A stretch of DNA of 64,000 bases from an uncultured Acidimicrobiales bacterium (GTDB taxonomy: Bacteria > Actinomycetota > Acidimicrobiia > Acidimicrobiales > JANYDT01): assembly GCA_963763885.1 (NCBI GenBank), contig CAVXQD010000007.1, positions 495,919 to 559,918 on the forward strand, given 5' to 3'. The translations under genes and the position numbers were made by a program. Shown piece after piece: positions 9,448 through 35,228 of the stretch. A model generated the notes under the pieces. That model was not told where the DNA came from. It saw nothing but the letters and a program-made list of their open reading frames with translations, and made no database searches. Within the stretch, counting starts at the first letter, position 1, and every line of letters begins with the position of its first letter.

Positions 9448-10536
9448 TCAGCCTGCAGGCGGAGGGGAAAGGGGGCTGACGTCGGTTCCAACCACGTAGG
9501 TCGCTACGAAGCCTGCATGGTCACTTCCCGGAATCACGACGTCACGCAACGTCAGCGGCGCAATTGGTCCGGAGTAGAACGCGTGGTCCAGGCGCATGAA
9601 CCGCGGTACCAGCCGCATGTCACGCGGCCACGAGGCAGAGAGTCCAAACCCCATTGCTTCGTGAGTGCTGCGCAGTCCGTTGTCGAACAGCTGACCGGTG
9701 ACGGGCAGCCATCGCGTGCCGTTGAGGTCACCCGCGATGATCAGCGGAGTTCCGCCGACCAACGTTTTCTCCGAACGTGCACGCAGTGCCTCGTCTTGCA
9801 AGATCCGGACCGTGTTCACAAACGCAGTGTCGGAGCCCTTTACCGTCAACGGAACCGGATGTGCACCGATGATCCGCACCGTGGTTCCACCATCAAGCGT
9901 CACGTCGACGGCGAGGAGTGGGCACCCCGGACTAGCTGACCCGCTGACGGCAAGTTGCCGGGGTTGGTTGGCAAACTTCAACCGCGAGAAAATGACGGTT
10001 CGCCACGTCCCTTCGGCACCGTTCTCTGCGAGGTACGGGTACGCGTTGAGCGCGCCGGACCGACGCAGTTGCGCTTCGATGGGTTTCGCCAATTCATGGA
10101 AGACGAGGACATCGGCGTCCTGCTGAAGCACTTGGCGAGAAAAGTCCGTTTCGTTGTCGACATAGACGTTTGCTGAGAAGACGCGAACAGTCCGAGCGGA
10201 GTCGATCACCCCCGAAGCGAAGGCCGCCGCTGGTTGAGAACGAACTGCCGGATACACGCTGAACCCGTAGACGATGCACAACAACAGCGACATTGCGAAA
10301 CGGATGGGGTGACCGCGCCACGCCGTGATCGCCAACGCAAACCACACAGGGAGCAACGTCAGCGGGAGCGCCGCCTGCGCAAGCACCGCATACGTGGAGC
10401 CACGCCAACCAATCAGCCGGGTAAAGACCGTGATTGCACCGGCCACGATGATGATTGCGGCCAGGACATCAAGGAGCGACGCTCCCACCGAGTCCTCGGA
10501 TCCGCCCCTGGATCGGGTGGAGCGGAGCGACGGCAT
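9448..10536 (-). CDS. membrane-anchored endonuclease/exonuclease/phosphatase (EEP) family protein
   Basis: N-terminal TM helices, then an EEP-like core (VFSANVY..., AGDLNGT, GSDHAGF). Confidence 0.7.
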   Translation of the reverse strand: MPSLRSTRSRGGSEDSVGASLLDVLAAIIIVAGAITVFTRLIGWRGSTYAVLAQAALPLTLLPVWFALAITAWRGHPIRFAMSLLLCIVYGFSVYPAVRSQPAAAFASGVIDSARTVRVFSANVYVDNETDFSRQVLQQDADVLVFHELAKPIEAQLRRSGALNAYPYLAENGAEGTWRTVIFSRLKFANQPRQLAVSGSASPGCPLLAVDVTLDGGTTVRIIGAHPVPLTVKGSDTAFVNTVRILQDEALRARSEKTLVGGTPLIIAGDLNGTRWLPVTGQLFDNGLRSTHEAMGFGLSASWPRDMRLVPRFMRLDHAFYSGPIAPLTLRDVVIPGSDHAGFVATYVVGTDVSPLSPPPAG

Positions 10537-10707: not shown

Positions 10708-11925
10708 GTGACGAGTTCGGCAGGCGTACGGCGGTTCCGCGACACCCCGGCCAGGCTTGCGTTTCAGCGCAATCTGCTCACCGGCCTCATCGTTGCGTGG
10801 GCGCTTGGCACCATCGGGGTGCTCGGCGTTGTTCGTTCCGCTTCCACAAAGGTGTCCAAAGCGGCCGAACAGGTTGCCTTGGTACAGCAGACCAAAGTGC
10901 AACTCACCCGCGCTGACTCGCTGGCAACATCTGGTTATCTGACCGGCGGCCTTCAGAGTGACCAAGCGTTGGCCGCGTTCGCCGCAGATATGGCTGCTGC
11001 CAATACGGGCCTTGCTGGGATATCTCGCGGCGTCGGCGGCAACCGGGCAACAGACACTCTGACGGCTATCAACTCGTACCTCACCGATGTCACCGCGGCG
11101 CAAGCAAACAATCGTCAAGGGTGGCCGGTGGGCGCCACCTATCAGAAGACGGCTTCGGCAAACCTTCGCTCCAACATCTTGCCAAGCCTCGATGCCGTGG
11201 ACCGGGCTGCACGGGACAGTGTTGTTGTCGCTGGCCGCAGGCTCGGCTGGACCTGGGCCATTGCATCGCTGTTCGGCTTGTTGGTCGTCGTTCCACTTGG
11301 ACTTGCGCTCGCAACCCTTGCGGCGCACACCAACCGGCTCCTCAACCTCCCAATCGTTTTGGGCTTTGCGGTGGCGTTCGTCGCCTTCTTACTGACGTCA
11401 AGTATTGCTGGGACCACCAAAACCGAGGGATTGCGCGGCATTCGCACCACCTTCCGCAATGAGGACCTTGCCGGCCAGGCGCGGGTTGCGTTGTACAACG
11501 CAAAGTCCGCCGAGGCACTCACGCTTATTGCTCGCGGGAGTGGGCAGCCCTACGAACTGCAGTGGCGCCAAAACATGTCAGACCTCGACGCGGTGATCAC
11601 CGCACAACCGTCGATGCGACTCGATCCCGTCCTCACCGAGGCAGTTGCGCGGTATCGAGCCAGCCACACCGAAGTCCGCAAGCTCGATGATTCCGGAGAC
11701 TGGGACTCTGCTCGAGAGATTGTGCTGGCCTCCGAAGGCGAACTCTCGGCCCCTGCGTTTCAATCCCTCGACGATGCAATCAACCTTGATTTCGGCGGAA
11801 ATGTAATCGGCTCCGATGTTGGTCGCGACATCACCATCGCCCAGGTGGTCATCGGGTTGGCTGCGCTTGTCGCAGCGGCGTTGGTTCGAACTGGTTATGC
11901 GCAGCGGCTGAAGGAATACCAATGA
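10708..11925 (+). CDS. GlnX-like four-TM membrane protein
   Basis: GTG start. Four predicted TM helices with two large helical extracytoplasmic regions. It sits immediately upstream of a GlnH-like gene and in the same operon as a PknG-like kinase, as in mycobacterial and corynebacterial glnX-glnH-pknG. Confidence 0.55.
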   Translation: MTSSAGVRRFRDTPARLAFQRNLLTGLIVAWALGTIGVLGVVRSASTKVSKAAEQVALVQQTKVQLTRADSLATSGYLTGGLQSDQALAAFAADMAAANTGLAGISRGVGGNRATDTLTAINSYLTDVTAAQANNRQGWPVGATYQKTASANLRSNILPSLDAVDRAARDSVVVAGRRLGWTWAIASLFGLLVVVPLGLALATLAAHTNRLLNLPIVLGFAVAFVAFLLTSSIAGTTKTEGLRGIRTTFRNEDLAGQARVALYNAKSAEALTLIARGSGQPYELQWRQNMSDLDAVITAQPSMRLDPVLTEAVARYRASHTEVRKLDDSGDWDSAREIVLASEGELSAPAFQSLDDAINLDFGGNVIGSDVGRDITIAQVVIGLAALVAAALVRTGYAQRLKEYQ

Positions 11926-13013
11926 GCAAGAGCCAGCGGAATGTTCGCCCCACCAAGGTCGATCCCACGAAGGTCGATCCCAGCAAGGTTGTGCCGACTG
12001 TTCAGGCCCCGGCCTCCGCTCGCTCAACAGCGCGCTGGAAAATCGCTGCTCTCATCGTTGCGACGGCCGTCGGTGTCTGGAGTCTCGGCCGGTCAGGTCG
12101 GTTCGTCCTCGGTTCCGACGAGATTGGCATCGTCACGGGCCTTCCACCAGATCCTCTCCCCGCGCCAGCTCAACCCCCAACGGCTAACGAAGACTGCCGC
12201 GGGTTTGACGCACGGGCGTCCTACCCCTCCAACGAGACGCCACAACCCTCCCCTGCTGTTGCACGGATCAAAGCACGCGGCAAGTTGATTGCTGGCGTCA
12301 GCGCAGACACGCTGCTGTTCGGTGCCCGCAACTCGCTCACGGGAAAGCTCGAGGGCCTCGACGTCGATCTGATTCGTCAACTTGCCATCAACATCTTCGG
12401 CAGCAACGCAAACGACGAACACGTCCAGTTCCGCGTCATCACCTACGCCGACCGACTCCCGTTGTTGGAAGCAGGGAGCATCGACGTTGTGGCACACACG
12501 ATGACCATCAACTGCGCCCGTTGGAACCGAATTGCGTTCTCGTCGGAGTACTACAGCGCGGGCCAACAGTTGCTGGTCAAGAGTGACTCCACCGCCAAAG
12601 AGATTGAAGATCTACCCAAGCAATCTCGCGTGTGCGTCCCAAGCGGTGGCACCAGCGTGGAGAACTTGGCCAAGTTCACAGACAACGCATTCAAACCTGT
12701 CGAAGTTGACGACATCACGCAATGCCTGGTGCTGATGCAGCAGGGCGCGGCCGATGCAGTGTTGTCAGACGACACCGTGGTGAAAGGAATGGCCCGCCAA
12801 GATCCGTACGTCAAAGTGGTTGGCCGTTTCCTTTCCGAAGAGCCATACGGAATGGGATTCAACGCCAAAGACACCGACCTTGTTCAGGTCACCAACGCAA
12901 TGCTGGATTCCATCCGCACCGGTGGGACGTTTGCGACAATCCTTACAGCGAACAATCTCCCCACCGACGCGCTCCCATCACCTAATACCAGCCGTCCGCT
13001 TCCGGCCGCGTGA
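11922..13013 (+). CDS. glnH: family-3 solute-binding protein, GlnH-like (Glu/Asp/Gln binding)
   Basis: ATGA overlap with the upstream gene. N-terminal TM/signal region, then ...KARGKLIAGVSADTLLFG...ITYADRLPLLEAGSIDVVAHTMTIN..R...FSSEYYSAGQQLLV, a typical SBP_bac_3 pattern. Confidence 0.8.
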   Translation: MSKSQRNVRPTKVDPTKVDPSKVVPTVQAPASARSTARWKIAALIVATAVGVWSLGRSGRFVLGSDEIGIVTGLPPDPLPAPAQPPTANEDCRGFDARASYPSNETPQPSPAVARIKARGKLIAGVSADTLLFGARNSLTGKLEGLDVDLIRQLAINIFGSNANDEHVQFRVITYADRLPLLEAGSIDVVAHTMTINCARWNRIAFSSEYYSAGQQLLVKSDSTAKEIEDLPKQSRVCVPSGGTSVENLAKFTDNAFKPVEVDDITQCLVLMQQGAADAVLSDDTVVKGMARQDPYVKVVGRFLSEEPYGMGFNAKDTDLVQVTNAMLDSIRTGGTFATILTANNLPTDALPSPNTSRPLPAA

Positions 13014-14152
13014 ACAGTTCCGGTTCCGTGACCCAGCCAACGCATCCGCAGCCACCCGCCTTGCCAGCCCAAGGCACGCAACTGCCACCGGACCGAACGC
13101 AGGCGATCGTCAACGCGTTTCGCTCGTGGTCGTCTGAAACTGGAGCCCAGCTTCTCGACCTGGATGCGTTACTTGCCCCGCTCCCCGACGAGGCCCATCA
13201 GGACCACACGCTTGCCTTTGTCATCTGGCAGGCAACCGACGCTGCCATCACCGCTGCACAAGAGCTGCCTTTGGGCACGGCCGACCAGCGCCTTGCTCCG
13301 TTGCGTAACCCGATTGTGGGAACCGACGGCAGTCAGCTTGCCCAGAACGCAGTCGAGGCTGGCGCCATCATCAGTGCACTTATTGATTCCACGCAAAGCC
13401 GAATCGATACAAACGAGGGGCGCTTAGCCGCAACGGCTGGTGTCGCCGCAGATCTCGCCCTCGCAGCGCCGCTGGTGAAGTCGTTGTCCATGAACGCCGC
13501 GTTACACAGGCAGCTGTTGGATCAATCGGTGGACCCAGTCCTCACGGCCAACCACAGCGCCCTTGCAGCGTTGGTCCGTGATGCTGCGGCACTCCGAATC
13601 GACCTGGAGTCCGCAGACAAAGAACGCTCGCAACTGTTGGCTGGACACAAGGTTGACCACCAGCAGATCGAAGCGTTGCGCACCCTGGAGTCCGAAGCAC
13701 GCAAGCTTGCAGCTGACGCCGCCGAAAAGGTAGTCAACATCACCCCACGCGGCATCGTTTCTGTTGACGCACTGGGAACACCACCGGACCTGAGTTCCAT
13801 GGCCGACGCGCCGTGGCCAGCGGTGCGCAATCTCCTTTCAGAACGCGCCACCAAACTGCAACGAGCCGAGACGTCGCTTCGCCAAGTGATCTCCAGCAGT
13901 CAATCTGCGCTCGCCGAGCGCAATGAACTCCGACAAATGGTCGACGCGTTTCGCGCCAAGGCAATGGCATCGCGCATCGGCGAAGTGCCCGATGTCAACG
14001 CCGCATACCAAGCCGCTCGGCAGTTGCTGTGGACGGCCCCAAGTGACCTCACCGCAGCTCGGACGGCAGTCACCACGTACCAAAAGGTAGTAAGCGATTA
14101 TACGGTGTCGGCCAAGAAGGCCAGCACCAGTCAACCGGAGGTGCACCGATGA
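13010..14152 (+). CDS. hypothetical Ala/Leu/Gln-rich, predicted coiled-coil protein
   Basis: 380-aa ORF with stop-start overlaps at both ends (13010-13013, 14149-14152). I recognise no motif. Confidence 0.6.
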   Translation: MNSSGSVTQPTHPQPPALPAQGTQLPPDRTQAIVNAFRSWSSETGAQLLDLDALLAPLPDEAHQDHTLAFVIWQATDAAITAAQELPLGTADQRLAPLRNPIVGTDGSQLAQNAVEAGAIISALIDSTQSRIDTNEGRLAATAGVAADLALAAPLVKSLSMNAALHRQLLDQSVDPVLTANHSALAALVRDAAALRIDLESADKERSQLLAGHKVDHQQIEALRTLESEARKLAADAAEKVVNITPRGIVSVDALGTPPDLSSMADAPWPAVRNLLSERATKLQRAETSLRQVISSSQSALAERNELRQMVDAFRAKAMASRIGEVPDVNAAYQAARQLLWTAPSDLTAARTAVTTYQKVVSDYTVSAKKASTSQPEVHR

Positions 14153-16443
14153 GCCCAGCGAGCGCAACTGGCCGCTGCACCCAACCAGGTTGCGGCGGCA
14201 CCATCGACAGCGGGTACTGCGACACCTGCGGTATCGCCCCCACGTCATCGGCACCGGCAAACTCACCGGCAAGCTCAGCGTCCGCGTCCAGTGCCGGTTC
14301 AGGTCCCGGGTCTGGCGCAGCCGCTTCGGGGTCCGCACGTGTCACCGGGTCCATCGCCAGGTCAATGAGGCAAAGCAGCCAGGTCACCAGCAGCACCACC
14401 GTCCTTGGGACTGCCGCAATGGGAACCGCACGTTCCGCTGCCGGCACTCCGGCAAGCATCAGAACCAGGCGTATCGGGGCAACCGCCGACCGGTCCCGGC
14501 TTGGCGTTGGGCTGGTCAACATTCCAACGGCTCCAGACATTGACCCCGCGGCCGCAGTCATTCCCAACGCCCAAGTGAGCGAGGAGAAGCGGTTCTGCTC
14601 AACGTGCAACAAACCGGTTGGTCGAGGCCGAGACGGACAGCCCGGCCGGGTCAAAGGGTTCTGCCCAGCCTGTGGCGCAGCGTTCGATTTTGCACCTCGT
14701 CTCAGCCCCGGCACGTTGCTTGGCTCCCAGTACGAAGTGGTTGGTCCCATCGCACACGGCGGCATGGGCTGGATCTACCTCGGCCGGGACAAGAACCTGT
14801 CGGGTCGGTTCGTGGTCATCAAGGGTCTCGTCAACGCCGCAGACAAAGACTTGCAGCAGGCGGTCATCACGGAGAAAGGCTTCCTCGCGGAAGTCAGCCA
14901 TCCGCTCATCGTCGAGGTCTTCAACTTCGTCGGCCACGAAGGCGTCAACTACATCGTGATGGAGTACGTGGGCGGCAAGACGCTCAACGATCTCCTCAAA
15001 GAACGTATCAAGGCCAACAACGGCGTCTACGCGCCGCTGCCACTCGACCAGGCAATTGCGTTCATCGTTGAAGTGCTGCCTGCGTTCACGTATCTGCACA
15101 ACAAGGGCCTGATCTACTGCGACTTCAAGCCCGCCAACCTCATGCAGGTCGGCGACGGTGTGAAGCTCATCGACCTCGGCGGTGTCAGGCGCGTCGAAGA
15201 CCAAGACAGCGCTCTTTACGGAACCATCGGTTTCCAAGCGCCAGAGGTGCCCGACCGTGGGGCATCTGTTGCTTCCGATATTTATACGATTGCCCGCACA
15301 CTTGCTGTTCTCACGTTCGAGTTCCGCGGGTATCAGAGCAACTTCGTCGATACCATCCCTGACCCATCCGCTGTTGCGTTGTTCGCGGAGCACGACTCGT
15401 ATTACCGCTTGCTCAGCAAAGCCACTGCTCCTCAGCCAGAGGATCGATTCCAGACCGCTGAAGAGTTCCGCGAGCAGCTCATTGGTGTGCTGCGCGAAGT
15501 TGTGGCCGCGCGAAGTACCGATGGTAGCCAGCGCACAGTTCCTTCGCCGCATTTCGGGGCGCCAGGAATTGCCGCCGAACCGACGTGGGCAGACCTTCCC
15601 GAGCTACGGGTCGACCCGGCAGACCCAGCAGCTTCTTGGTTGGCTGCCATCACGGTTGTGGACCCGCAAGAGCAGTTGGCGCAGCTTGGTCAGTCCCCGG
15701 TCGGAGAAACAGCGGGGGTCCATGCCCGACGGGCGTTGGCCCTGCTCGCCGCGCAGCAGCCGGCGGCCGCAGCAGCCGAAGGCACCACCATCCTGTCCAA
15801 AGATCCGTGGGAGTGGCGCGGCGTCTGGGTGCAAGGTCTCGCTGCGCTCGCCGAGGGCCGCAACGACGACGCCGTGCAGGCGTTCAACGCTGTCTACGGG
15901 CAACTTCCAGGGGAGCTCGCTCCCAAGCTTGCGTTGGCTCGGGCTTGCGAAATCGTCGGTCGGCTCGACGCCGCGGCTTCCCTCTACGAAGTATGCGCGC
16001 AGACTGATGCCGCCTACAGTTCCATCGGCTTGCTTGGCTTGGCACGAATGGCTCGCCTCAAAGGTGACGTGCCCGCAACGCTCACGGCGCTGGAACGAGT
16101 CCCTCCAACAAGCCGCCTCTACGGTGAATCAAAGATTCGCCGTGCAACCGCTTTGCTGGAACGAGCACTTGCCCCAACCCAGGGCGCCAACGCTTCGCAG
16201 GCAGCCGACGATCTTCGTCAGGCCCTCGATGAACACGAGGCTGCGGGCGCACCGCCGTTGGAGCACATCGGGTTCCGCAATCAGGTTCTGCGCCACCTGG
16301 TCAGCCTCACGCCTGGCGTCCCCAAACTCCGTACGGATCTGGAAGCATCGTTGCGGGCTCAGGCCCGCCTCGCCCCCACGTATCAAGAGCGCGTCGAACT
16401 GGTCGACGAAGCAAACCGAGTGAGGAACAAGTCCCTTTTCTAG
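14149..16443 (+). CDS. pknG: PknG-like Ser/Thr protein kinase (zinc ribbon + rubredoxin-like CxxCG pair + kinase + TPR)
   Basis: CTQPGCGG...CDTCG; CSTCNK...CPACG; kinase core YEVVGPIAHGGMGWIYLGRD...VVIKGL...YCDFKPANLM...DLGG; Ala-rich TPR-like C-terminus. Confidence 0.85.
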   Translation: MSPASATGRCTQPGCGGTIDSGYCDTCGIAPTSSAPANSPASSASASSAGSGPGSGAAASGSARVTGSIARSMRQSSQVTSSTTVLGTAAMGTARSAAGTPASIRTRRIGATADRSRLGVGLVNIPTAPDIDPAAAVIPNAQVSEEKRFCSTCNKPVGRGRDGQPGRVKGFCPACGAAFDFAPRLSPGTLLGSQYEVVGPIAHGGMGWIYLGRDKNLSGRFVVIKGLVNAADKDLQQAVITEKGFLAEVSHPLIVEVFNFVGHEGVNYIVMEYVGGKTLNDLLKERIKANNGVYAPLPLDQAIAFIVEVLPAFTYLHNKGLIYCDFKPANLMQVGDGVKLIDLGGVRRVEDQDSALYGTIGFQAPEVPDRGASVASDIYTIARTLAVLTFEFRGYQSNFVDTIPDPSAVALFAEHDSYYRLLSKATAPQPEDRFQTAEEFREQLIGVLREVVAARSTDGSQRTVPSPHFGAPGIAAEPTWADLPELRVDPADPAASWLAAITVVDPQEQLAQLGQSPVGETAGVHARRALALLAAQQPAAAAAEGTTILSKDPWEWRGVWVQGLAALAEGRNDDAVQAFNAVYGQLPGELAPKLALARACEIVGRLDAAASLYEVCAQTDAAYSSIGLLGLARMARLKGDVPATLTALERVPPTSRLYGESKIRRATALLERALAPTQGANASQAADDLRQALDEHEAAGAPPLEHIGFRNQVLRHLVSLTPGVPKLRTDLEASLRAQARLAPTYQERVELVDEANRVRNKSLF

Positions 16444-16451
16444 GGCTACAC

Positions 16452-17537
16452 ATGGTCTGTTCTTCCTGTGCAGCAACCAACCCAGCCGATGCCGCCTTCT
16501 GCGAAGCGTGCGGTGCGTCGACTGGCGCGCAAGCAACGAGTGCATCGGCTGAATCGCAACAAGGACAAGAGCTTCTTCCCGGCGAGTCCAGCGTGGCCAC
16601 CATGCCGAACGTGTCAACGATGCCGAACGTGTCCAACGTTGCCAACTTGCCATGTGTGGCGTGCGGCAACGTGGTGGAGGACCAGTACTGCACCGAGTGC
16701 GGAGTGAAGCAGCCTTCACCACGCGACCATTTCGAAATCCTGTTCTCGTCGCGTCTTGCTGGAGTCTGCGACCGAGGCATTCTGCACGCTGCCAACCAAG
16801 ATGCCATGGCAATTGCACCTGGCCCAGACCAGCAGTCCGGCGTCTTAGTGGTGTGCGACGGAGTCACCAGTGCGCCGTTGAGCGAACGGGCATCTCTTGC
16901 AGCCGCAGCTGCGGCGTGCACGGTGCTGGAAGCGGGCTTTCGGACTGAGCCAGCAGCTCGCACCGAAGCATTCTGGGCCGATGCACTGCGCACCTCGTGC
17001 ACCATCGGGCAGGCCGAAACCGTTGCGGTGGCGCGCACCCTCGGCGACCCGCCAGAGCCTCCGTCGTGCACGTTTGTGGCGGTCGTCATCGAGGCCGGGG
17101 TGCTGCACATTGGCTGCTGCGGGGACTCTCGCGCATACTGGTTGCCCGATGCCGGCGATGGGCTAATCCTCAGCACCGACGACTCCATCGCTTCACAACT
17201 CATCGCTGGCGGGATGCCGAGGGCCACTGCTGAAGCAGACTCACGCGCGCATACGATCACTCGCTGGTTGGGCGCGGACTCCCATGATCCCACCGCCCGA
17301 GTCGGGACGGTCAAGGTGTCAGGCGATGGCTGGGTAGCCGTTGTTTCCGACGGTATGTGGAACTACGCGTCAGAGCCTGCCGCCCTTAAGGCCCAGATGA
17401 GCAATGTCGATGCACTCACCAACGCGCGGTCCATGGTGCAGTATGCCAACGCCCAAGGCGGAGTGGACAACATCACCGTCACGTTGTTGCGGCTAGGCAA
17501 CCCTTCGTCTGAATCCCCAGCAGAATCCAACTTGTAA
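16452..17537 (+). CDS. PP2C (PPM) Ser/Thr phosphatase with N-terminal double zinc ribbon
   Basis: CSSCAATNPADAAFCEACG and CVACGNVVEDQYCTECG, then PPM motifs (NQDA, VCDGV, GDSRAY, SDGMWN, GGVDNITV). Confidence 0.85.
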   Translation: MVCSSCAATNPADAAFCEACGASTGAQATSASAESQQGQELLPGESSVATMPNVSTMPNVSNVANLPCVACGNVVEDQYCTECGVKQPSPRDHFEILFSSRLAGVCDRGILHAANQDAMAIAPGPDQQSGVLVVCDGVTSAPLSERASLAAAAAACTVLEAGFRTEPAARTEAFWADALRTSCTIGQAETVAVARTLGDPPEPPSCTFVAVVIEAGVLHIGCCGDSRAYWLPDAGDGLILSTDDSIASQLIAGGMPRATAEADSRAHTITRWLGADSHDPTARVGTVKVSGDGWVAVVSDGMWNYASEPAALKAQMSNVDALTNARSMVQYANAQGGVDNITVTLLRLGNPSSESPAESNL

Positions 17538-17547
17538 AGGCCAACCG

Positions 17548-18849
17548 ATGCCAACCTTCAGCGCGCAGACCTTTCAGAACGAGTACGTCGCAGACGGCGC
17601 CGACGAGATTCACGCCATCGTCACCGTGACCTGCAGCGGGACAGGGGCCTCGTCCACTGCACCCTCGTCCGGCACCGCAGCCGAAGTGCTCATCATCGAT
17701 GCGTCCGGCTCCATGGAGTCGCCGCCCACCAAGATTGCGGCAGCCCGACGCGCAGGCATGGCAGCAATCGATGAGATCAGCGACGGTGTCTATTTCGCCG
17801 TCATTGCCGGGCGCAGCCAGCCGCAGATGGTGTACCCGTTCCAGACCGAGTTGGTGCGGATGGACGCTCAGCAGCGAGTCAACGCGAAGCAGGCCGTCGA
17901 GTGGCTGAAGGCCGATGGAGCCACCCCGCTTGGCACCTGGCTGATGGCAGCGCGCGGTTTGTTCTCCACGGTGATGGCAGACAAGCGTCACGCCATTCTG
18001 CTCACCGACGGACGCCAGGAAGGCGAAGAGCCCCACGTGCTGGATTACGCGCTGTCGCAGTGCCAGGGCGTGTTTCAGTGCGACTGTCGTGGCATCGGAG
18101 CCGACTGGGAAGTTGAACAACTCCGGCGCATTTCATCTGCGCTCATGGGAACGGTCGACATCGTGGCCAAACCAGAAGATCTCGACGACGACTTCCGTCA
18201 GATGATGCAGACATCAATGTCTCGGGGTGTGGCCGACGTGCGGCTGCGGGTGTGGGCTCCACAGGGTTCGCAGCTGCTGTTTGTGCGCCAGGTTGCCCCG
18301 CAGGTTGAGGACATGACGTCGCGTGCAACGCAGGTCGGCCCGCTCATCAGGGAATTCGGTACCGGCGCGTGGGCCAACGAATCTCGGGACTATCACGTTG
18401 CCGTGAAGGTTCCGCCGGCTCCTGTTGGTAACGAACGTTTGTCTGCGCGCGTAGAAGTTGTTGTCAACGATGAGGTGCAGGCAAAGGCACTGGTCAGGGC
18501 CGTGTGGTCAAACGACGTTGCTATGACTACCCGCATGAACTCTGCTGTTGCGCACTACACCGGCCAAGCTGAGCTGGCGGATGCCATTCAGCAGGGTCTT
18601 GCAGCCAAAGCCGCAGGTGATGAGAACGCAGCCACCGTGCTGCTGGGTAAGGCAGCCAAGTTGGCTCACGACACCAACAACGAGGCGACTATGCGGCTGT
18701 TGAAGAAGGTCGTCGAAGTGGACGATGCCGATGCCGGCACCGTGCGCTTGCGACGCGACGTCGAGAAGTCAGACGAGATGGCCCTCGATACTCGCAGTAC
18801 CAAGACCGTGCGTATCAGCAGAACTCCGCCAACGGGAGCGCAACCATGA
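17548..18849 (+). CDS. vWA domain protein
   Basis: MIDAS-type DASGSM, ...GATPLG..., ILLTDGRQ; long helical C-terminal region. Confidence 0.8.
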   Translation: MPTFSAQTFQNEYVADGADEIHAIVTVTCSGTGASSTAPSSGTAAEVLIIDASGSMESPPTKIAAARRAGMAAIDEISDGVYFAVIAGRSQPQMVYPFQTELVRMDAQQRVNAKQAVEWLKADGATPLGTWLMAARGLFSTVMADKRHAILLTDGRQEGEEPHVLDYALSQCQGVFQCDCRGIGADWEVEQLRRISSALMGTVDIVAKPEDLDDDFRQMMQTSMSRGVADVRLRVWAPQGSQLLFVRQVAPQVEDMTSRATQVGPLIREFGTGAWANESRDYHVAVKVPPAPVGNERLSARVEVVVNDEVQAKALVRAVWSNDVAMTTRMNSAVAHYTGQAELADAIQQGLAAKAAGDENAATVLLGKAAKLAHDTNNEATMRLLKKVVEVDDADAGTVRLRRDVEKSDEMALDTRSTKTVRISRTPPTGAQP

Positions 18850-19592
18850 CCACACCGTGCCCTAACGGTCACCGCTCAACCGATCCGGAGTGGTGCGACA
18901 CTTGTGGCGCACCACTCGGCACTCCGCCAGCCGGGTCAGGGTCCGGCTCCGCGCCTTCAGCTCCGCCCAGCTCGGGAGTCTCCTCGGGGGCAGGAAAGCC
19001 GGGCGCAACGATCAACTGCCCCTCGTGCGGTGACCCAAACGCAGAGTCCAACTTGTTCTGTGAATCTTGCGGGCTGGACTTTGTGACCGGGCAGGTTCCA
19101 ACCCCGCCACCTGCTGCTGCGCCACATCCGGTGCTGCCAGCCGCAGCCCCGGCCGTTGTGACGCCGCCGGTCGACCCGGGAACAGACCTTGGTTGGACCG
19201 TCACGCTCGCTGTTGACCCCGAGTGGTTCGCAGCCAAAGGTGAAGGAATCGGAATCCCGCCAAGCAGGGCAGAACGCGTGCAGGAACTGCGTCACTCGCC
19301 GTTGGTCATCGGGCGCACTCGTTCCGCTGGTGCAAGCCCCGGGATCGTGATCGACGATGACCACGGAATCTCACGTCGCCACGCCGAGGTCACTCACGAC
19401 CCGGCTACGGATTCGTGGAACATCACCGACCTCGGATCAACCAACGGCACGTTTGTGGTGGCTGCCGGCACGGCGCTTTCCGCTTCGCTTTCGCCCATCA
19501 CGCCCAACACGCCGACGCCCTTGTCTGAGTCAGACCGTGTGTTCGTTGGCGCATGGACCCAAGTCACCTTTGCCCGCACGGTCACGCCCTGA
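18846..19592 (+). CDS. FHA domain protein with N-terminal double zinc ribbon and Pro-rich linker
   Basis: CPNGH...WCDTCG and CPSCGD...FCESCG; FHA core LVIGR...GISRRHAEV...ITDLGSTNGTFV. ATGA overlap with the vWA gene. Confidence 0.85.
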   Translation: MTTPCPNGHRSTDPEWCDTCGAPLGTPPAGSGSGSAPSAPPSSGVSSGAGKPGATINCPSCGDPNAESNLFCESCGLDFVTGQVPTPPPAAAPHPVLPAAAPAVVTPPVDPGTDLGWTVTLAVDPEWFAAKGEGIGIPPSRAERVQELRHSPLVIGRTRSAGASPGIVIDDDHGISRRHAEVTHDPATDSWNITDLGSTNGTFVVAAGTALSASLSPITPNTPTPLSESDRVFVGAWTQVTFARTVTP

Positions 19593-19775: not shown

Positions 19776-20927
19776 TCAGGCCAACCAACGGAGCCAGGTT
19801 CCGTGGCCGTGGGTGGTTCCCAGCCAGCGAGCGGATGATCCGGTGCTGGTGTAGTCCACGGCCACAATTGGGCAACCCAGCTCGGATCTGTCCGTACGAG
19901 ATTCTGGCGGAAACGGAAGTTCGCGCGCATAAAACGGATGCTCCATGAACACCCACGTGAGCGGGCGAGATGCGCCCAGCTTGGCAAGCGTCTCATCAAA
20001 CGCAACCCGCCTCTCCGCCGGCAGATACGTCATCACCCACGTGGTGACAATCACCGGGTGAACACCAGCAGGCACCTCAGCGATCAGGGCAGTGATGGCG
20101 TCGACTGCATCACCTTGGCGAATGTCCACGGGAACAGAACGAGCCAGTTCCAGGGCATCCGCGAGACGGGCGCACCGGACCGGTTCGTCGGGCCACACCA
20201 GCGCCTGCAGCCAGCGCGATTGGAACTCGTCATGAACGTCAAGCGGGTTGAGGTCCAACCCAGCACGATGAGCCACCTGCAACCGGTGCATTGCCTCAAC
20301 GGGAAGGTTCGCAGGCGAATCGGTCATGTCGCAGACCACGCGAACGGGCGAAGTAGCGCTGCCCATCGTTCGGTCACCGGCGGCCATTTCGTATGTGTAC
20401 GAATAATGGTCGAACCGGAGGTTGAGGCCCGCGCTTGTTCCGACATCGATCATTGCCAACGGCGAACCAACTCGATGGCTTACATCGGCCAACGCCGCGA
20501 ACAGCACGGCAGAACGGCCCGGCTCGTTTGTCTGTGTGGACCCCGCCTCGATGAGCGCTTGCAATTCTTGACTTCGCTCCCCGATGAAATTGGCGAGGGC
20601 GTCGGCCAGTGCTGGGTCGTCGGGCGACTGTGTCCCGCCAACCGTTGGGAACCATGCCGCCAAAGGGTCCGCCGGGTCACGCAGGAGCGATGCATGGATC
20701 GCCGCCAAGAGCAGGTTGGGGCGGCGCTGCATTTTGGTGGCTTTGGCCAACAGAACGATCGCCTCAGGGGTCTCGGCCAACAGCGGACACAGCGCTGTGT
20801 AGAGCGGCGAGGACTTGCATTCCTCAACGAACGATCGCAACAGCGTGCGCAGCCGCTCGTTGGTGTCGGCCGTGTAGTGCGTGGTTGCGTGGGAGCCGGT
20901 TGCGGTTTCGTTCGAAGGCGTCATCAC
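19776..20927 (-). CDS. DUF2332 family protein
   Basis: 383-aa ORF. From memory, the N-terminal ...LRSFVEECKSSPLYTALCPLLAETPEA...RRPNLLLAAIH pattern is typical of DUF2332. Confidence 0.65.
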   Translation of the reverse strand: MMTPSNETATGSHATTHYTADTNERLRTLLRSFVEECKSSPLYTALCPLLAETPEAIVLLAKATKMQRRPNLLLAAIHASLLRDPADPLAAWFPTVGGTQSPDDPALADALANFIGERSQELQALIEAGSTQTNEPGRSAVLFAALADVSHRVGSPLAMIDVGTSAGLNLRFDHYSYTYEMAAGDRTMGSATSPVRVVCDMTDSPANLPVEAMHRLQVAHRAGLDLNPLDVHDEFQSRWLQALVWPDEPVRCARLADALELARSVPVDIRQGDAVDAITALIAEVPAGVHPVIVTTWVMTYLPAERRVAFDETLAKLGASRPLTWVFMEHPFYARELPFPPESRTDRSELGCPIVAVDYTSTGSSARWLGTTHGHGTWLRWLA

Positions 20928-33770: not shown

Positions 33771-35228
33771 ATGAAACGCTTAATCGTCGGTAGTTTCGTT
33801 TGCGTCGGCCTCGGGTTCGCCACGCTCTCTCCGGTTTCCGCAGCAAAGCTCTCAGCCAGTGACTATCCCGCTAACGAGATGGCCCCGTTGTATCCATTCA
33901 CTGACAAACCAGCACCTGTAGTGAAATATAGCGTTACACCGAAGAATTTTTCCGCTGAGCCGACACCGCGACCAAAAGAGCCAACTCCGACCGATCCCTC
34001 TCTTTTGAGTGATGATCAACTTCGACAGATCATCGATTTAACCGGTTTTTCGGAAACGGATGCCAGGCTTTCGTGGAAACTCAGCGGTGTACTTCTGGAT
34101 TTACAAGAACAGTTCAAAGAGAACCCAGCCTTTGGTGCGGCATGGAACGGAATTACGGGAACATTCTCACTGAACGTTCGCCTAGCGAAAGAAGACGAGC
34201 AAGTAGAACAGGCTATCAAGGCAAAAGAAAAGGAGTTGGGCATTCCTATCAACCGACACTACGGTGGCATGTCCTACAAAGATGAGGATCATTTTTTACG
34301 AGTGTACCTTGCTCAATTTTCGAAAGTTCGGTTCAAAACGGACACTGACTACGAAACTGGTCTTGTCACTATAACGACACTCGACCCGACCATGACGGAG
34401 AGAGTCAACGCTCAGAAAAACCCGCACGTGAAAGTTGTCAACGAGGATCCTGCACCGACGAAGCCTCTTTCTGGTTCGTCTTCGGCTCCCGGTGCCTCGC
34501 TTTGGCAAGACACAAGTTACGGAGGTGCTTGGAACGGACAGTCTATGTATCCCGGAGTTGGTGCCCCTCCGAATCAGTATGTCGGCTGGGGATGGAGTTG
34601 TAGCGGGGGAGCGTCGTTTCGGACACCTTGGAATCCTGTTCAAAAGAGTCTAGTAACCGCGGCTCACTGTTTGGATCTGCCTGGTTCAAACGGATACAAC
34701 GATCAATACAGCGCAATAGCCACTCAGTCCACCATCTACAATGGTTTCTATAGCCAAAGATGGACCGTTTGTGGTGACTACGGAGATGTTCAGTTTCACG
34801 ATTACTACCAGGCATATCCATATGTGAGCAATCTTCTTGCCGTAGGGAGTGCTGCGAGTCCTACCTACTACTTTGCGAAGGAAGTAGCAGGGGGTGTTAA
34901 CCCGACCATGTGGACCTACAACAGTGGCGCAGCTTCAAGAGTTGTGAATGGAAATGTTCCTCTCACCCTTTTTGATCGTTTCGGGTGGTTTCCAGGCGGT
35001 GGTGGCGCGTCAGACTGCAACCAGTCGATGTATGGTCCAATCACGGTTGGCACTCCCGCAATTGAGGGTGACAGCGGCGGAATACTGATCAATAAGTATC
35101 TCAACGATTGGTATTTGGCCGGGATTCTGCACGCCGTCAATGGATATGAGACTCAATCAACTTTCATTTCTTGGATTTTCGGTCAACAAAACAAGAGTTG
35201 GTGGTGTACAACAGCAAATCCTTGTTAG
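33771..35228 (+). CDS. secreted chymotrypsin-fold (S1, alpha-lytic-protease-like) serine protease with long propeptide
   Basis: Signal peptide MKRLIVGSFVCVGLGFATLSPVSA; catalytic motifs VTAAHC and EGDSGG; low-GC codon usage. Confidence 0.85.
   Translation: MKRLIVGSFVCVGLGFATLSPVSAAKLSASDYPANEMAPLYPFTDKPAPVVKYSVTPKNFSAEPTPRPKEPTPTDPSLLSDDQLRQIIDLTGFSETDARLSWKLSGVLLDLQEQFKENPAFGAAWNGITGTFSLNVRLAKEDEQVEQAIKAKEKELGIPINRHYGGMSYKDEDHFLRVYLAQFSKVRFKTDTDYETGLVTITTLDPTMTERVNAQKNPHVKVVNEDPAPTKPLSGSSSAPGASLWQDTSYGGAWNGQSMYPGVGAPPNQYVGWGWSCSGGASFRTPWNPVQKSLVTAAHCLDLPGSNGYNDQYSAIATQSTIYNGFYSQRWTVCGDYGDVQFHDYYQAYPYVSNLLAVGSAASPTYYFAKEVAGGVNPTMWTYNSGAASRVVNGNVPLTLFDRFGWFPGGGGASDCNQSMYGPITVGTPAIEGDSGGILINKYLNDWYLAGILHAVNGYETQSTFISWIFGQQNKSWWCTTANPC

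Follow-up and report, generated by a model that had tools for sequence, protein, structure and literature searches.

A conserved seven-gene cassette in Actinomycetota that may represent a fuller PknG nutrient-sensing pathway

Introduction

The GlnX-GlnH-PknG-GarA/OdhI pathway is known from Mycobacterium and Corynebacterium (Bhattacharyya 2018 PMC6069109; Sundermeyer 2022 PMC9769921; Lisa 2021 PMC8546545), and the PknG papers that could be searched describe only a 3-gene operon. In the 64-kb stretch of DNA from an uncultured Acidimicrobiales bacterium that was analysed here (the window), the same trio stands within a run of seven genes. This raises the question of whether the seven belong to one system, and what the additional genes might do in it. 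The preferred reading, with the balance tilted modestly in its favour, is that they are one conserved Actinomycetota signalling cassette, a fuller and probably ancestral PknG nutrient-sensing pathway. The seven-gene form suggests that the textbook three-gene pathway is a cut-down version.

Organisation of the locus

Seven open reading frames (g1 to g7), all on the + strand, span positions 10708-19592, each being present at the coordinates given in the initial annotation. All features described below are on this strand unless stated otherwise. The overlaps within the block are of 4 nt each. Those of g1/g2 at 11922, g3/g4 at 14149 and g6/g7 at 18846 are ATGA, as annotated; that of g2/g3 at 13010, also annotated as ATGA, reads GTGA, the start codon of g3 being GTG. 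The only non-overlapping junctions are the two around the PP2C gene, where the gaps of 8 nt (g4/g5, 16443/16452) and 10 nt (g5/g6, 17537/17548) are as had been described. The block is bordered by an Exo_endo_phos gene (9448-10536) and a DUF2332 gene (19776-20927), both on the - strand. A search inside the block found no promoter-like site, and terminator-like sites are not above expectation (6 observed, 8.3 expected from shuffled sequence). It is inferred, without transcript data, that the seven genes are transcribed as a single unit.

The sensor module and the kinase

The first gene (g1, 10708..11925, GTG start) encodes a GlnX-family membrane sensor of 405 aa. It aligns over its full length with the GlnX family model NCBIfam NF058618 (E 7e-50), scoring 170 bits, which is under the curated cut-off of 250, and its orthologs match Pfam PF28326 Sensor_actino. 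There are 4 TM segments (windows at residues 24-42, 184-202, 211-229 and 375-393) and two extracytoplasmic domains of ~140 aa each. The cytoplasmic C-terminal tail (11893..11922, consensus G-[YF]-G-Q-R-L-R-E-Y-R) is conserved, with G396, R400, E403 and Y404 retained in at least 50 of 56 orthologs, and is inferred to be a docking peptide for g3 or for the TPR domain of PknG.

The second gene (g2, 11922..13013) encodes a GlnH-type amino-acid-binding protein of 363 aa (Pfam SBP_bac_3) with a hydrophobic anchor at its N-terminus. Among solved structures it is most similar to Mtb GlnH (6H1U, E 4e-50), with the runner-up binding protein at 1e-35. When aligned to 6H1U, with the roles of the ligand residues taken from PMC6069109, it retains R147, T162, R169 and D250 and departs at S164 (Thr), K161 (His) and W232 (Ile). 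Since the ligand residues are only partly conserved, notably at W232 and K161, the alignment leaves room for a signal other than Asp/Glu. The initial annotation described GlnH of mycobacteria and corynebacteria as a lipoprotein; in this copy a lipobox was looked for and is absent, though 35 of 58 orthologs have one.

Between glnH and pknG, an unknown coiled-coil protein had been annotated. This protein (g3, 13010..14152, 380 aa, GTG start) is indeed unknown and is best described as soluble and all-helical, its AF2 model consisting of long helices (pLDDT 89). It has no family match in Pfam, NCBIfam or PADLOC, and no solved relative was found by sequence or by fold; any role assigned to it is pure inference. 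A profile from 58 orthologs matches the proteins in the same slot in Kribbella (5e-71), Catenulispora (1e-50) and Kineosporia (3e-44), and judged by these matches g3 is a single family across classes.

The fourth gene (g4, 14149..16443) encodes a PknG-type Ser/Thr kinase of 764 aa, in which an N-terminal zinc ribbon and an S/T-rich linker are followed by rubredoxin, kinase and TPR domains (Pfam PknG_rubred 2e-25, Pkinase 3e-28, PknG_TPR 9e-40). Its top solved match is Mtb PknG (2PZI, E 2e-124) across the last three regions, while the best non-PknG kinase scores 73 bits. The zinc ribbon (C10, C15, C24, C27; 14176..14229) follows the pattern C-x2-4-[CH]-x7-8-C-x2-C in 60 of 66 orthologs. The ribbon falls outside the public gene call P0001, which begins at 14419. 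In the linker is the motif S-R-P-T106-R-R-L (14455..14475), with T at the T106 position in 62/66 orthologs and L, I or V at +3 in 62/66. In Mtb PknG, pThr docking sites at the N-terminus recruit the FHA domain of GarA, and by analogy the motif is inferred to be a candidate autophosphorylation and FHA-docking site (pT-x-x-L).

On these matches the input module is orthologous to GlnX-GlnH-PknG, as first proposed. A kinase outside the PknG clade, next to unrelated membrane and binding proteins, would have refuted this and is not what was found.

The PP2C, vWA and FHA proteins

The domain content annotated for the three remaining genes was borne out by Pfam and NCBIfam. The fifth (g5, 16452..17537) encodes a PP2C phosphatase of 361 aa with two N-terminal zinc ribbons (Pfam PP2C_2 2e-11 and DZR; NCBIfam Stp1_PP2C 8e-22). 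Its metal and catalytic motifs (VCDxG..H..N.DA, VVCDGV, GDSR, SDG.WN and GG.DN) are at least 90% conserved. The spacing of ribbon 1 (C3, C6, C17, C20; C-x2-C-x10-C-x2-C; 16458..16511) is found in 74/79 orthologs and is that of the ArnA zinc finger C21/C24/C35/C38 (PMC12852372).

The sixth (g6, 17548..18849) encodes a tripartite vWA protein of 433 aa (Pfam VWA_3, VWA_3_C) with vWA, beta-sandwich and C-terminal helical domains. It is the best-conserved member of the cassette, with a median identity to orthologs of 63% compared with 51% for the kinase. It matches PDB 4FX5 over its full length (E 1.5e-115), of which it is, going by this match, an ortholog. A Foldseek search with the AF2 model (pLDDT 78) gave 4FX5 (1.5e-52), then ArnB 8S05_A (9.7e-17) and vWA2 5A8J (1.7e-15). 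The MIDAS motif (D51-x-S53-x-S55, with T126 and D154; 17698..17712) is invariant in alignments of 5 and 26 sequences and is kept by at least 90% of 82 orthologs. Near the C-terminus is a nearly invariant motif, D-E-M-A-L-D-T-R-S-T-K-T-(T/V)-R-(I/V) (18772..18816), where S417, K419, T420 and R422 are present in 82/82 orthologs, T418 in 81/82, and I or V at residue 423 in 81/82. The motif sits where the last helix ends and extends into a tail whose model confidence is low (pLDDT <50) from residue 420. This motif is inferred to be a candidate phospho-acceptor and FHA-binding site, in the absence of phosphorylation or interaction data.

The seventh (g7, 18846..19592) encodes an FHA protein of 248 aa with two N-terminal zinc ribbons (Pfam FHA 6.5e-11, DZR). 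Ribbon 2 is RanBP2-like (C58, C61, C72, C75; C-x2-C-x3-N-x6-C-x2-C; 19017..19070) and is found in 76/81 orthologs, or 79/81 if the Asn is not required. The FHA domain (PF00498, residues 154-232; 19305..19541) has conserved pThr-binding residues (GR..S, SxxH, NGT). A GarA probe matches only this region in the whole window. An identification of g7 as GarA/OdhI was rejected, as it scores only 27 bits with the NCBIfam OdhI model, whose cut-off is 200. Weak matches in a PDB search include ArnA 5A8I and 8S05_C. Related N-terminal zinc ribbons are common to the kinase, the phosphatase and the FHA protein.

Conservation and genomic setting

A species-level genome scan identified 549 species genomes with a relative of the vWA protein, and colinearity was counted in the 53 loci with enough upstream sequence. 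All seven genes are colinear in 51 of these. With so many independent loci sharing it, the gene order is far beyond chance. The order GlnX-GlnH-g3-PknG-PP2C-vWA-FHA is retained in two classes, Acidimicrobiia and several orders of Actinomycetes, and the synteny is not restricted to this genome; such a restriction would have refuted the initial annotation. HMM searches of the products, another of the checks it had proposed, likewise returned the domains first described. Catenulispora has all seven genes in the same order, as do Kineosporia and Kribbella once the g3 profile is applied, while Actinophytocola and Nonomuraea retain the PknG-PP2C-vWA-FHA part. In loci L083 and Nonomuraea L091 the kinase, PP2C, vWA and FHA genes are present without detectable GlnX/GlnH, so the sensor is exchangeable rather than obligatory. 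Outside Corynebacteriales, the PknG locus has the seven-gene cassette as its common form.

The cassette is surrounded by housekeeping genes in conserved positions. It was not found on viral contigs, and its sole match in a plasmid collection is an 11.85-Mb Nonomuraea replicon; there is no mobile or viral association. Its sequence identity declines in step with taxonomic distance, and inheritance therefore looks vertical.

A possible mechanism and its alternatives

In the proposed pathway, an extracytoplasmic amino acid would be bound by GlnH and GlnX would pass the signal through its short cytoplasmic tail to the TPR domain of PknG, possibly through g3. PknG would phosphorylate both its own SRPT106RRL site and, in the vWA protein, the near-invariant Thr cluster at the C-terminal end. 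The zinc-ribbon FHA protein, pre-docked on the vWA protein through its ribbon, would then bind pThr tightly through its FHA domain, a change demonstrated by experiment in ArnA/ArnB, and the zinc-ribbon PP2C would dock likewise and reset the switch. The result would be an ArnA/ArnB-like phospho-switch with PknG as writer and PP2C as eraser, and parallel control of a GarA-like protein encoded elsewhere in the genome may persist. This mechanism is inferred, and none of the cassette members has transcript, phosphorylation or interaction data behind it. As a counterpoint, the FHA protein could bind phospho-PknG instead of the vWA protein.

A kinase-only feedback loop is possible, if doubtful, in which FHA binds phospho-SRPT106RRL, PP2C dephosphorylates PknG, the vWA protein is a passive scaffold, and the sole output, as in mycobacteria, is to phosphorylate a GarA/OdhI-type regulator whose gene lies elsewhere. 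The conserved pT-x-x-L motif in the PknG linker fits this, as does the GarA recruitment of Mtb PknG. So does the Deinococcus vWA-STPK-FHA-PP2C operon, in which the FHA protein and PP2C act antagonistically on kinases (preprint 10.64898/2026.01.23.701218). However, it is the vWA protein and not the kinase that is best conserved, and this, with its near-invariant Thr cluster, sits poorly with a role as passive scaffold. The phosphorylated partner in ArnA/ArnB is also the vWA protein, and there is no GarA-like gene in the window, though the genome may hold one elsewhere.

The genes might instead be two unrelated units that are merely adjacent, GlnX-GlnH-g3-PknG and PP2C-vWA-FHA, since the only non-overlapping junctions flank the PP2C gene and other phyla pair PP2C, vWA and FHA genes with other kinases. 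This is very hard to reconcile with the adjacency in 51/53 loci and across two classes, with the shared type of zinc ribbon, and with the overlap of the PknG stop and PP2C start in many orthologs (e.g. L004, L005, L007, L089). It is also improbable, to a lesser degree, that the locus is a stress or anti-phage module of the TerY-P type, in which the vWA protein (TerY-like), PP2C and kinase would together sense metal or stress as a phosphorylation switch and GlnX/GlnH would be an accessory sensor. This would imply functional kinship with tellurite-resistance (Ter/TelA) or defence systems. The initial annotation had noted a likeness to this triad, and in architecture the likeness holds: the genes for a vWA protein, a PP2C and a Ser/Thr kinase share an operon and include zinc-ribbon fusions, which fits the published outline (Anantharaman, Iyer and Aravind 2012, as outlined in PMC11090510). 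In 11 related loci, genes for TelA, an unknown protein and a SpoVK-like AAA+ protein are immediately upstream, the AAA gene overlapping GlnX. In sequence the likeness fails, and classing the cassette as a TerY-P triad is unsupported: PADLOC defence models match none of g5, g6 and g7, and the kinase is PknG, with a C-terminal TPR domain and its ribbon N-terminal rather than C-terminal. The cassette also adds FHA, GlnX, GlnH and g3 genes, its setting is housekeeping and vertical as described above, and there is no TelA or AAA gene in the window.

Comparison with known systems

The initial annotation knew of no description of the extended GlnX/GlnH cassette, and a literature search found no paper on the seven-gene arrangement. 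With the mycobacterial and corynebacterial pathway it has in common the orthologous core trio in the same order and on the same strand, the rubredoxin, non-RD kinase core and TPR domain of PknG, and signalling that is presumably from the outside to a cytoplasmic kinase. Only the cassette has the conserved helical g3 and, after pknG, dedicated PP2C, tripartite vWA and zinc-ribbon FHA genes. Its PknG has an extra N-terminal zinc ribbon, its FHA protein differs from GarA/OdhI, and this GlnH copy, besides lacking the lipobox, has two Asp/Glu side-chain contact residues altered.

The four domain types of the cassette (Hanks kinase, PP2C, FHA and vWA) serve as writer, eraser, reader and adaptor, with an extracytoplasmic signal feeding the kinase, in PpkA-PppA-Fha1 (the threonine-phosphorylation system of Pseudomonas aeruginosa type VI secretion) and Deinococcus DRA0331-0334. 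Both are without GlnX, GlnH, g3 and PknG. The vWA of PpkA is part of the kinase itself, as a periplasmic domain, and T6SS genes are absent from the cassette; in Deinococcus the kinase is transmembrane and the PP2C bears a KI-FHA domain.

The closest characterised relative of the vWA and FHA pair is the ArnB/ArnA phospho-switch of the archaeon Sulfolobus acidocaldarius (Hoffmann 2019 PMC6509490; PMC12852372 (2026); PDB 8S05, 5A8J, 5A8I), in which the RanBP2-type zinc finger of ArnA docks on ArnB (PMC12852372) and FHA-pThr binding follows kinase action in a nutrient-dependent manner (PMC6509490, PMC12852372). In structure, g6 matches ArnB best after 4FX5, and it has been remarked independently that 4FX5 has the tripartite fold and intact MIDAS of ArnB/vWA2 (PMC6509490). 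The link of g6 to ArnB is structural and rests on a predicted model (TM 0.54/0.61 with 8S05_A); identity is ~15%, and a profile-sequence search matches 8S05_A only weakly (E 0.043) and within the vWA domain alone. By sequence, ArnA is no nearer to the FHA domain of g7 than GarA is. Both systems have a tripartite vWA protein with intact MIDAS, its gene adjoining that of a zinc-ribbon FHA protein, and the ligand spacing of g7 ribbon 2 is identical to that of the ArnA zinc finger (C-x2-C-x10-C-x2-C). Two further parallels, inferred on the side of the cassette, are regulation through Hanks-type kinases and a Ser/Thr phosphatase, and a response to nutrient state. The mapped ArnB phosphosites are within the helical bundle, not in the terminal tail as proposed for g6. 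The ArnC/D kinases and PP2A, which are neither PknG nor PP2C types, are not encoded beside arnAB, and the Arn output is archaellum expression. The bacterial cassette, unlike Arn, has the kinase, phosphatase and membrane sensor genes in one operon, with a zinc ribbon on the kinase and phosphatase as well.

Organization of the cassette

The cassette spans 10708-19592 and is made up of seven ORFs, all on the plus strand, with products of 405, 363, 380, 764, 361, 433 and 248 aa. Direct reading of the sequence finds ATGA overlaps between glnX and glnH, between the gene for the helical protein and pknG, and between the vWA and FHA genes; pknG is followed after 8 nt by the PP2C gene, and this after 10 nt by the vWA gene. 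Both gaps are as the initial annotation had stated them, but the ATGA overlap that it also placed between glnH and the third gene is GTGA, with GTG as the start codon of the third gene. The cassette is flanked on one side by an Exo_endo_phos gene (9448-10536) and on the other by a DUF2332 gene (19776-20927), both on the opposite strand, and its neighbours in the window are housekeeping genes. The ORF coordinates, the junctions and these opposite-strand flanks confirm that the seven-gene block is real, with all of its ORFs, their order and their tight junctions recovered. The four genes additional to the trio of glnX, glnH and pknG are also as first described: an unknown protein between glnH and pknG, a PP2C, a MIDAS-containing vWA protein and an FHA protein.

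Co-transcription of the seven genes is a reasonable inference, for which there are no transcript data. A promoter and terminator scan of the cassette, uninformative overall, gave no sigma-70-like site and no more terminator-like hairpins than expected from shuffled sequence. An Rfam search of the window returned no family, and no TelA, AAA or defence genes are present within its 64 kb. Elsewhere in the window, the GC content between 34000 and 36000 is 0.51, against approximately 0.61-0.63 outside this stretch, which may be foreign DNA. A 485 aa ORF in this low-GC stretch (33771-35228, plus strand) has no Pfam family.

The sensory proteins GlnX and GlnH

The first gene product aligns end to end with NCBIfam NF058618, the GlnX family (E 7e-50), yet scores below the curated cut-offs, with 170 bits against 250 for the family and 43 bits against 780 for the equivalog. 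By sequence, it belongs to the wider GlnX family as a divergent member and is not the corynebacterial equivalog. The 4-TM architecture of GlnX is matched by four hydrophobic segments, with two domains of about 140 aa each lying outside, and Pfam PF28326 (Sensor_actino) is present on its orthologs. There is hardly any cytoplasmic mass. In the ortholog alignment the C-terminal tail, G-[YF]-G-Q-R-L-R-E-Y-R, is strongly conserved.

The second product is an SBP_bac_3 protein, with M. tuberculosis GlnH as its top solved match (E 4e-50) and a second binding protein at 1e-35. In M. tuberculosis GlnH, R147, T162 and W232 have roles in specificity for Asp/Glu, and K161 acts via water (PMC6069109). The window's protein retains R169 and D250, which contact the amino-acid backbone, and R147 and T162, which contact the side chain, but has Thr for S164, His for K161 and Ile for W232; the His and Thr variants are also conserved among its orthologs. 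With these contacts partly kept and partly changed, the protein is likely to bind an amino acid, and Asp/Glu specificity is not settled, since W232 and K161 are replaced. The initial annotation had taken it for the GlnH that is known from mycobacteria and corynebacteria as an Asp/Glu-binding lipoprotein. The GlnH-type identity stands, but this copy has no lipobox: it and its nearest relative, in locus L001 of another genome, have a hydrophobic N-terminal segment without a lipobox Cys (window 11922-12200). A lipobox Cys is found in 35 of 58 orthologs. For the window's copy, anchoring in the membrane or cleavage by signal peptidase I may take the place of lipidation.

The kinase PknG

PknG (14149-16443) has the architecture expected of its family, with Pfam matches to PknG_rubred (2e-25), Pkinase (3e-28) and PknG_TPR (9e-40). 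M. tuberculosis PknG (2PZI) matches it across the rubredoxin, kinase and TPR regions (E 2e-124); the best bacterial kinase that is not a PknG reaches about 73 bits. These family and domain matches, with M. tuberculosis GlnH and PknG as the top solved relatives, bear out the proposed identity of the GlnX-GlnH-PknG trio.

An N-terminal zinc ribbon at residues 10-27 (C10, C15, C24, C27) is present in 60 of 66 orthologs of the kinase. It has the [WY]-C-[DT]-x-C-G flavour that is also seen in ribbon 1 of the FHA protein and ribbon 2 of the PP2C, and the C-terminus of the kinase is the TPR domain, not a zinc ribbon. M. tuberculosis PknG is not known to have such an N-terminal ribbon. The public gene call for the kinase (P0001, 674 aa) begins at the ATG at 14419 and therefore lacks the first 90 codons (14149-14418), the conserved ribbon included. 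The start at 14149, which overlaps the stop of the preceding gene, is better.

The linker motif S-R-P-T106-R-R-L has Thr in 62 of 66 orthologs, with L, I or V at the +3 position, approximately 12 residues ahead of a conserved RLGxGLV segment. In sequence terms this is a textbook type of FHA ligand, for which there are no binding data. The region corresponds to the stretch of M. tuberculosis PknG in which autophosphorylated Thr residues recruit GarA.

The unassigned helical protein

No family was found for the third product in Pfam, NCBIfam or PADLOC, and no solved relative by sequence. An AlphaFold2 model built with 17 homologs is all-helical and confident (pLDDT 89), and has no significant neighbour in the PDB. 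A profile from 58 orthologs matches the proteins in the same slot of Kribbella, Catenulispora and Kineosporia (E 5e-71 to 3e-44). Such matches across genera indicate that the slot is filled by a single, fast-evolving family.

The PP2C, vWA and FHA proteins

The PP2C has every catalytic motif conserved and two N-terminal zinc ribbons, the first of which (C3, C6, C17, C20) has ArnA-like spacing in 74 of 79 orthologs. A possible TM segment at residues 206-224 was rejected, this hydrophobic window being within the conserved PP2C core (PPSCTFV... motif) and judged to be buried. Between the two ribbons (window 16590-16650), the low-complexity linker has a short peptide sequence repeated in tandem, MPNVSTMPNVSN, which most orthologs lack and which seems to have arisen by a recent in-frame duplication.

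The vWA protein (17548-18849) is a cytoplasmic protein in its own right, without a TM segment; it has a VWA_3_C domain and an intact MIDAS, the residues of which are conserved. Its C-terminal motif is D-E-M-A-L-D-T-R-S-T-K-T-(T/V)-R-(I/V), where all 82 orthologs have S417, K419, T420 and R422, and 81 have T418. T415, S417, T418 and T420 form a near-invariant Ser/Thr cluster. In the AlphaFold2 model the motif is at the end of the last helix, followed by a tail that is of low confidence from residue 420. T420-x-x-I/V is, as a pattern, an FHA-type motif; its phosphorylation and any phospho-dependent binding by the FHA protein are inferred only. The protein also carries a conserved F-Q-C-D-C-R-G-I-G-x-D-W of unknown role.

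The last product has two zinc ribbons ahead of an FHA domain in which the pThr-binding residues (GR..S, SxxH, NGT) are conserved. Ribbon 2 (C58, C61, C72, C75) has the ArnA spacing, C-x2-C-x10-C-x2-C, in 79 of 81 orthologs. Thus PknG, the PP2C and the FHA protein all start with zinc ribbons in the ortholog alignments. GarA/OdhI, the PknG substrate that controls 2-oxoglutarate dehydrogenase, is a small FHA protein carrying an ETTS motif at its N-terminus. The FHA protein of the cassette was considered as its ortholog and rejected, as it scores 27 bits with the OdhI model, for which the cut-off is 200. No GarA-like gene was found in the 64-kb window, where a GarA probe matches this FHA gene only.

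Conservation and distribution

The kinase's relatives at 85, 58, 51 and 49% identity, from two Acidimicrobiia MAGs, one Acidimicrobiales MAG and Kineosporia sp. A_224, are on contigs that keep the identical seven-gene order. Exact-sequence look-ups with the window's kinase, with P0001 and with the helical protein matched no record; the nearest relative is an Acidimicrobiia MAG. In a vWA-alignment scan with one genome per species, at least 549 genomes encode a relative of the vWA protein; the true number may be higher, because the scan demanded two exact peptide patterns, neither of which is matched by the sequence of the solved relative 4FX5. The best 80 loci were scored by tblastn. All seven genes are colinear in 51 of the 53 in which 7.3 kb or more of sequence precedes the vWA gene, the exceptions being one contig end and locus L083, which is without the first three genes. 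Among cultured species, the cassette is carried by Kribbella hippodromi and all seven genes are present in Catenulispora subtropica. Actinophytocola oryzae has PknG-PP2C-vWA-FHA at a contig edge, and Nonomuraea gerenzanensis has the helical protein and PknG-PP2C-vWA-FHA, with a different protein upstream. The synteny is therefore not private to the window's genome, as the order is shared by Acidimicrobiia and several Actinomycetes orders. In S. coelicolor, SCO4816-4826, between purH and mdh, may be the same cluster; this is unverified and is not used as evidence.

The vWA protein is the best-conserved member: its median ortholog identity is 63%, while the kinase has 51% and GlnX and the helical protein have about 31%. 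In the same four relatives its identities are 95, 75, 63 and 54%. It is unusual for a presumed accessory protein to be more conserved than the kinase.

The cassette was absent from viral contigs in a scan of these, and in a plasmid collection it was found only on an 11.85-Mb Nonomuraea replicon. This suggests that it is an old, vertically inherited housekeeping locus and not a mobile island.

Two loci have PknG-PP2C-vWA-FHA without detectable GlnX or GlnH: L083 (1-6600), from an Acidimicrobiales MAG, in which the helical protein is also missing, and L091 (7036-9884), from Nonomuraea gerenzanensis, in which it is kept. In the latter a 509-aa protein is in the place of GlnX/GlnH, suggesting that the sensor module is swappable. 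Upstream of the glnX gene, 11 related loci have TelA, an unknown gene and a SpoVK/CbxX-like AAA+ gene directly ahead of the cassette (L007:2681-6176, L088:4297-7714, L070, L075, L077-L080, L082, L084 and L085). This ten-gene form, with the end of the AAA gene overlapping the beginning of glnX, is found in Kineosporia, Kribbella and nine MAGs. The unknown protein is conserved, with 170-206 aa. No Pfam or NCBIfam family was found for it or for the upstream proteins of Nonomuraea.

Relationship to ArnA and ArnB

The vWA protein has a full-length match to PDB 4FX5 (E 1.5e-115), an unpublished structural-genomics entry for Caci_2163 of Catenulispora acidiphila. When Hoffmann et al. (2019) solved vWA2, a Sulfolobus paralog of ArnB, 4FX5 was seen to have the same tripartite build as ArnB and vWA2 (vWA, beta-sandwich, C-terminal helical bundle) and an intact MIDAS (PMC6509490). 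Foldseek with the AlphaFold2 model of the window's protein (pLDDT 78) gives 4FX5 as the top match (E 1.5e-52), followed by ArnB from the ArnAB complex (8S05_A; E 9.7e-17, TM 0.54/0.61) and vWA2 (5A8J; E 1.7e-15). Over approximately 439 alignment columns, ArnB and vWA2 rank above all other vWA proteins except 4FX5. From sequence and model together, the protein is predicted to be a tripartite vWA protein with an intact MIDAS. The adjacent FHA protein, with its four-Cys N-terminal ribbon and C-terminal FHA domain, has the features of an ArnA-type partner.

ArnA, a zinc-finger and FHA protein, is the partner of ArnB; its ribbon (C21, C24, C35, C38) docks on the beta-sandwich and C-terminal domain of ArnB to give a loose complex (PMC6509490, PMC12852372). 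The kinase ArnC phosphorylates the C-terminal bundle of ArnB, and the pThr sites so exposed are then bound by the FHA domain in a tight complex, which nutrient limitation loosens, with involvement of a PP2A phosphatase (PMC6509490, PMC12852372). Support at the sequence level is weak: a vWA profile matches 8S05_A at E 0.043 and in the vWA domain only, and the FHA protein matches ArnA (5A8I) at E 0.006, no better than it does GarA. The case for a relationship is thus one of fold and architecture.

The model also matches the eukaryotic COPII subunits Sec23 and Sec24 (Foldseek E about 1e-11), and the title of PDB 8S05 describes ArnAB as 'an archaeal ortholog of the Sec23/24 core motif'. The actinobacterial pair of zinc-ribbon and vWA proteins may be in the same deep lineage as Sec23/24.

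Proposed mechanism and evolution

There is high confidence that the seven genes work together, and the interpretation in the initial annotation was largely right. Confidence in the specific mechanism is moderate. By inference, and without experimental data, the vWA protein would be the hub and main substrate, holding PknG, the PP2C and the FHA protein by their zinc ribbons. The GlnX tail would engage the TPR domain of PknG, perhaps through the helical protein; this domain has previously been proposed as the GlnX-facing surface (PMC6069109, PMC8546545).

Members of Pseudonocardiaceae, Propionibacteriales, Kineosporiales, Catenulisporales and Acidimicrobiia carry the vWA-PP2C-FHA extension. Given this spread, the simplest reading of the three-gene operon in Mycobacterium and Corynebacterium is that it was reduced secondarily, although this is an inference without a tree. 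It is possible to go further, to a reading that is tentative and, taken whole, rather doubtful. The three-gene PknG operon would be the reduced remnant of an ancestral signalosome of seven genes, or ten if TelA, the unknown protein and the AAA+ ATPase are counted. A Sec23/24-like, ArnB-type vWA hub would dock PknG as writer, the PP2C as eraser and the FHA protein as reader, and the helical protein would physically link the cytoplasmic tail of GlnX to the TPR domain of PknG. If so, Archaea and Actinomycetota would share the invention of a nutrient-responsive vWA/FHA phospho-switch, and PknG would gain a second output independent of GarA.

PknG is a master kinase of virulence and metabolism, intensively studied in M. 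tuberculosis and C. glutamicum. The cassette bears on how the signal passes from GlnX to PknG, for which the helical protein and the GlnX tail are candidates, and on what PknG controls beyond GarA/OdhI, where the Thr cluster at the vWA C-terminus is a candidate new substrate. In Acidimicrobiia and several Actinomycetes orders the sensor-kinase trio is locked to four more genes, for an adaptor-like protein, a phosphatase, a phospho-reader and a putative vWA hub. A bacterial pathway is thereby connected with 4FX5, an orphan structure with no assigned role, and with the ArnA/ArnB switch of Archaea.

Comparison with known systems

The resemblance to a TerY-type triad (TerY-P) in the initial annotation is supported by the presence of a vWA protein, a PP2C and a Ser/Thr kinase in one operon. 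However, the TerY-P kinase has its zinc ribbon fused at the C-terminus (PMC11090510), whereas that of the cassette's PknG is N-terminal. PADLOC gave only generic kinase matches for the cassette and no family at E <= 0.01 for the PP2C, vWA and FHA proteins, although it is unconfirmed which TerY-P models the release contains. Linkage to ter/tel genes is absent from the window; the TelA-unknown-AAA genes of the 11 related loci mean that a tel link does exist in the wider family. The TerY-P label is thus only partly apt, and an extended PknG pathway containing an ArnA/ArnB-like phospho-switch remains the preferred explanation.

A literature search found no description of an extended PknG operon, though the 2012 TerY-P paper lay outside what was covered. 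In that paper Anantharaman et al. reportedly examined the genes around TelA and could have remarked on this neighbourhood; a prior mention there is the main risk to the claim of novelty.

The cassette differs from the three-gene GlnX-GlnH-PknG operon in the gene between glnH and pknG and in the three co-oriented genes after pknG. A related four-domain module is the PpkA-PppA-Fha1 pathway of the P. aeruginosa T6SS, in which the vWA domain is part of the kinase and the genes are in a T6SS cluster; here the vWA is a separate protein and the flanks are housekeeping genes. The Deinococcus DRA0331-0334 operon is another such module, and Kaur et al. (2020) mentioned a different actinobacterial theme of kinase, PP2C and vWA that is GTPase-linked. 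With ArnA/ArnB, the FHA protein of the cassette shares both the architecture of zinc ribbon and FHA domain and the spacing of the ribbon cysteines. The cassette is best classed as a union of two known systems, the amino-acid-sensing pathway of PknG and a vWA/FHA phospho-switch of the ArnA/ArnB type, together with a PP2C of its own and a new helical protein.
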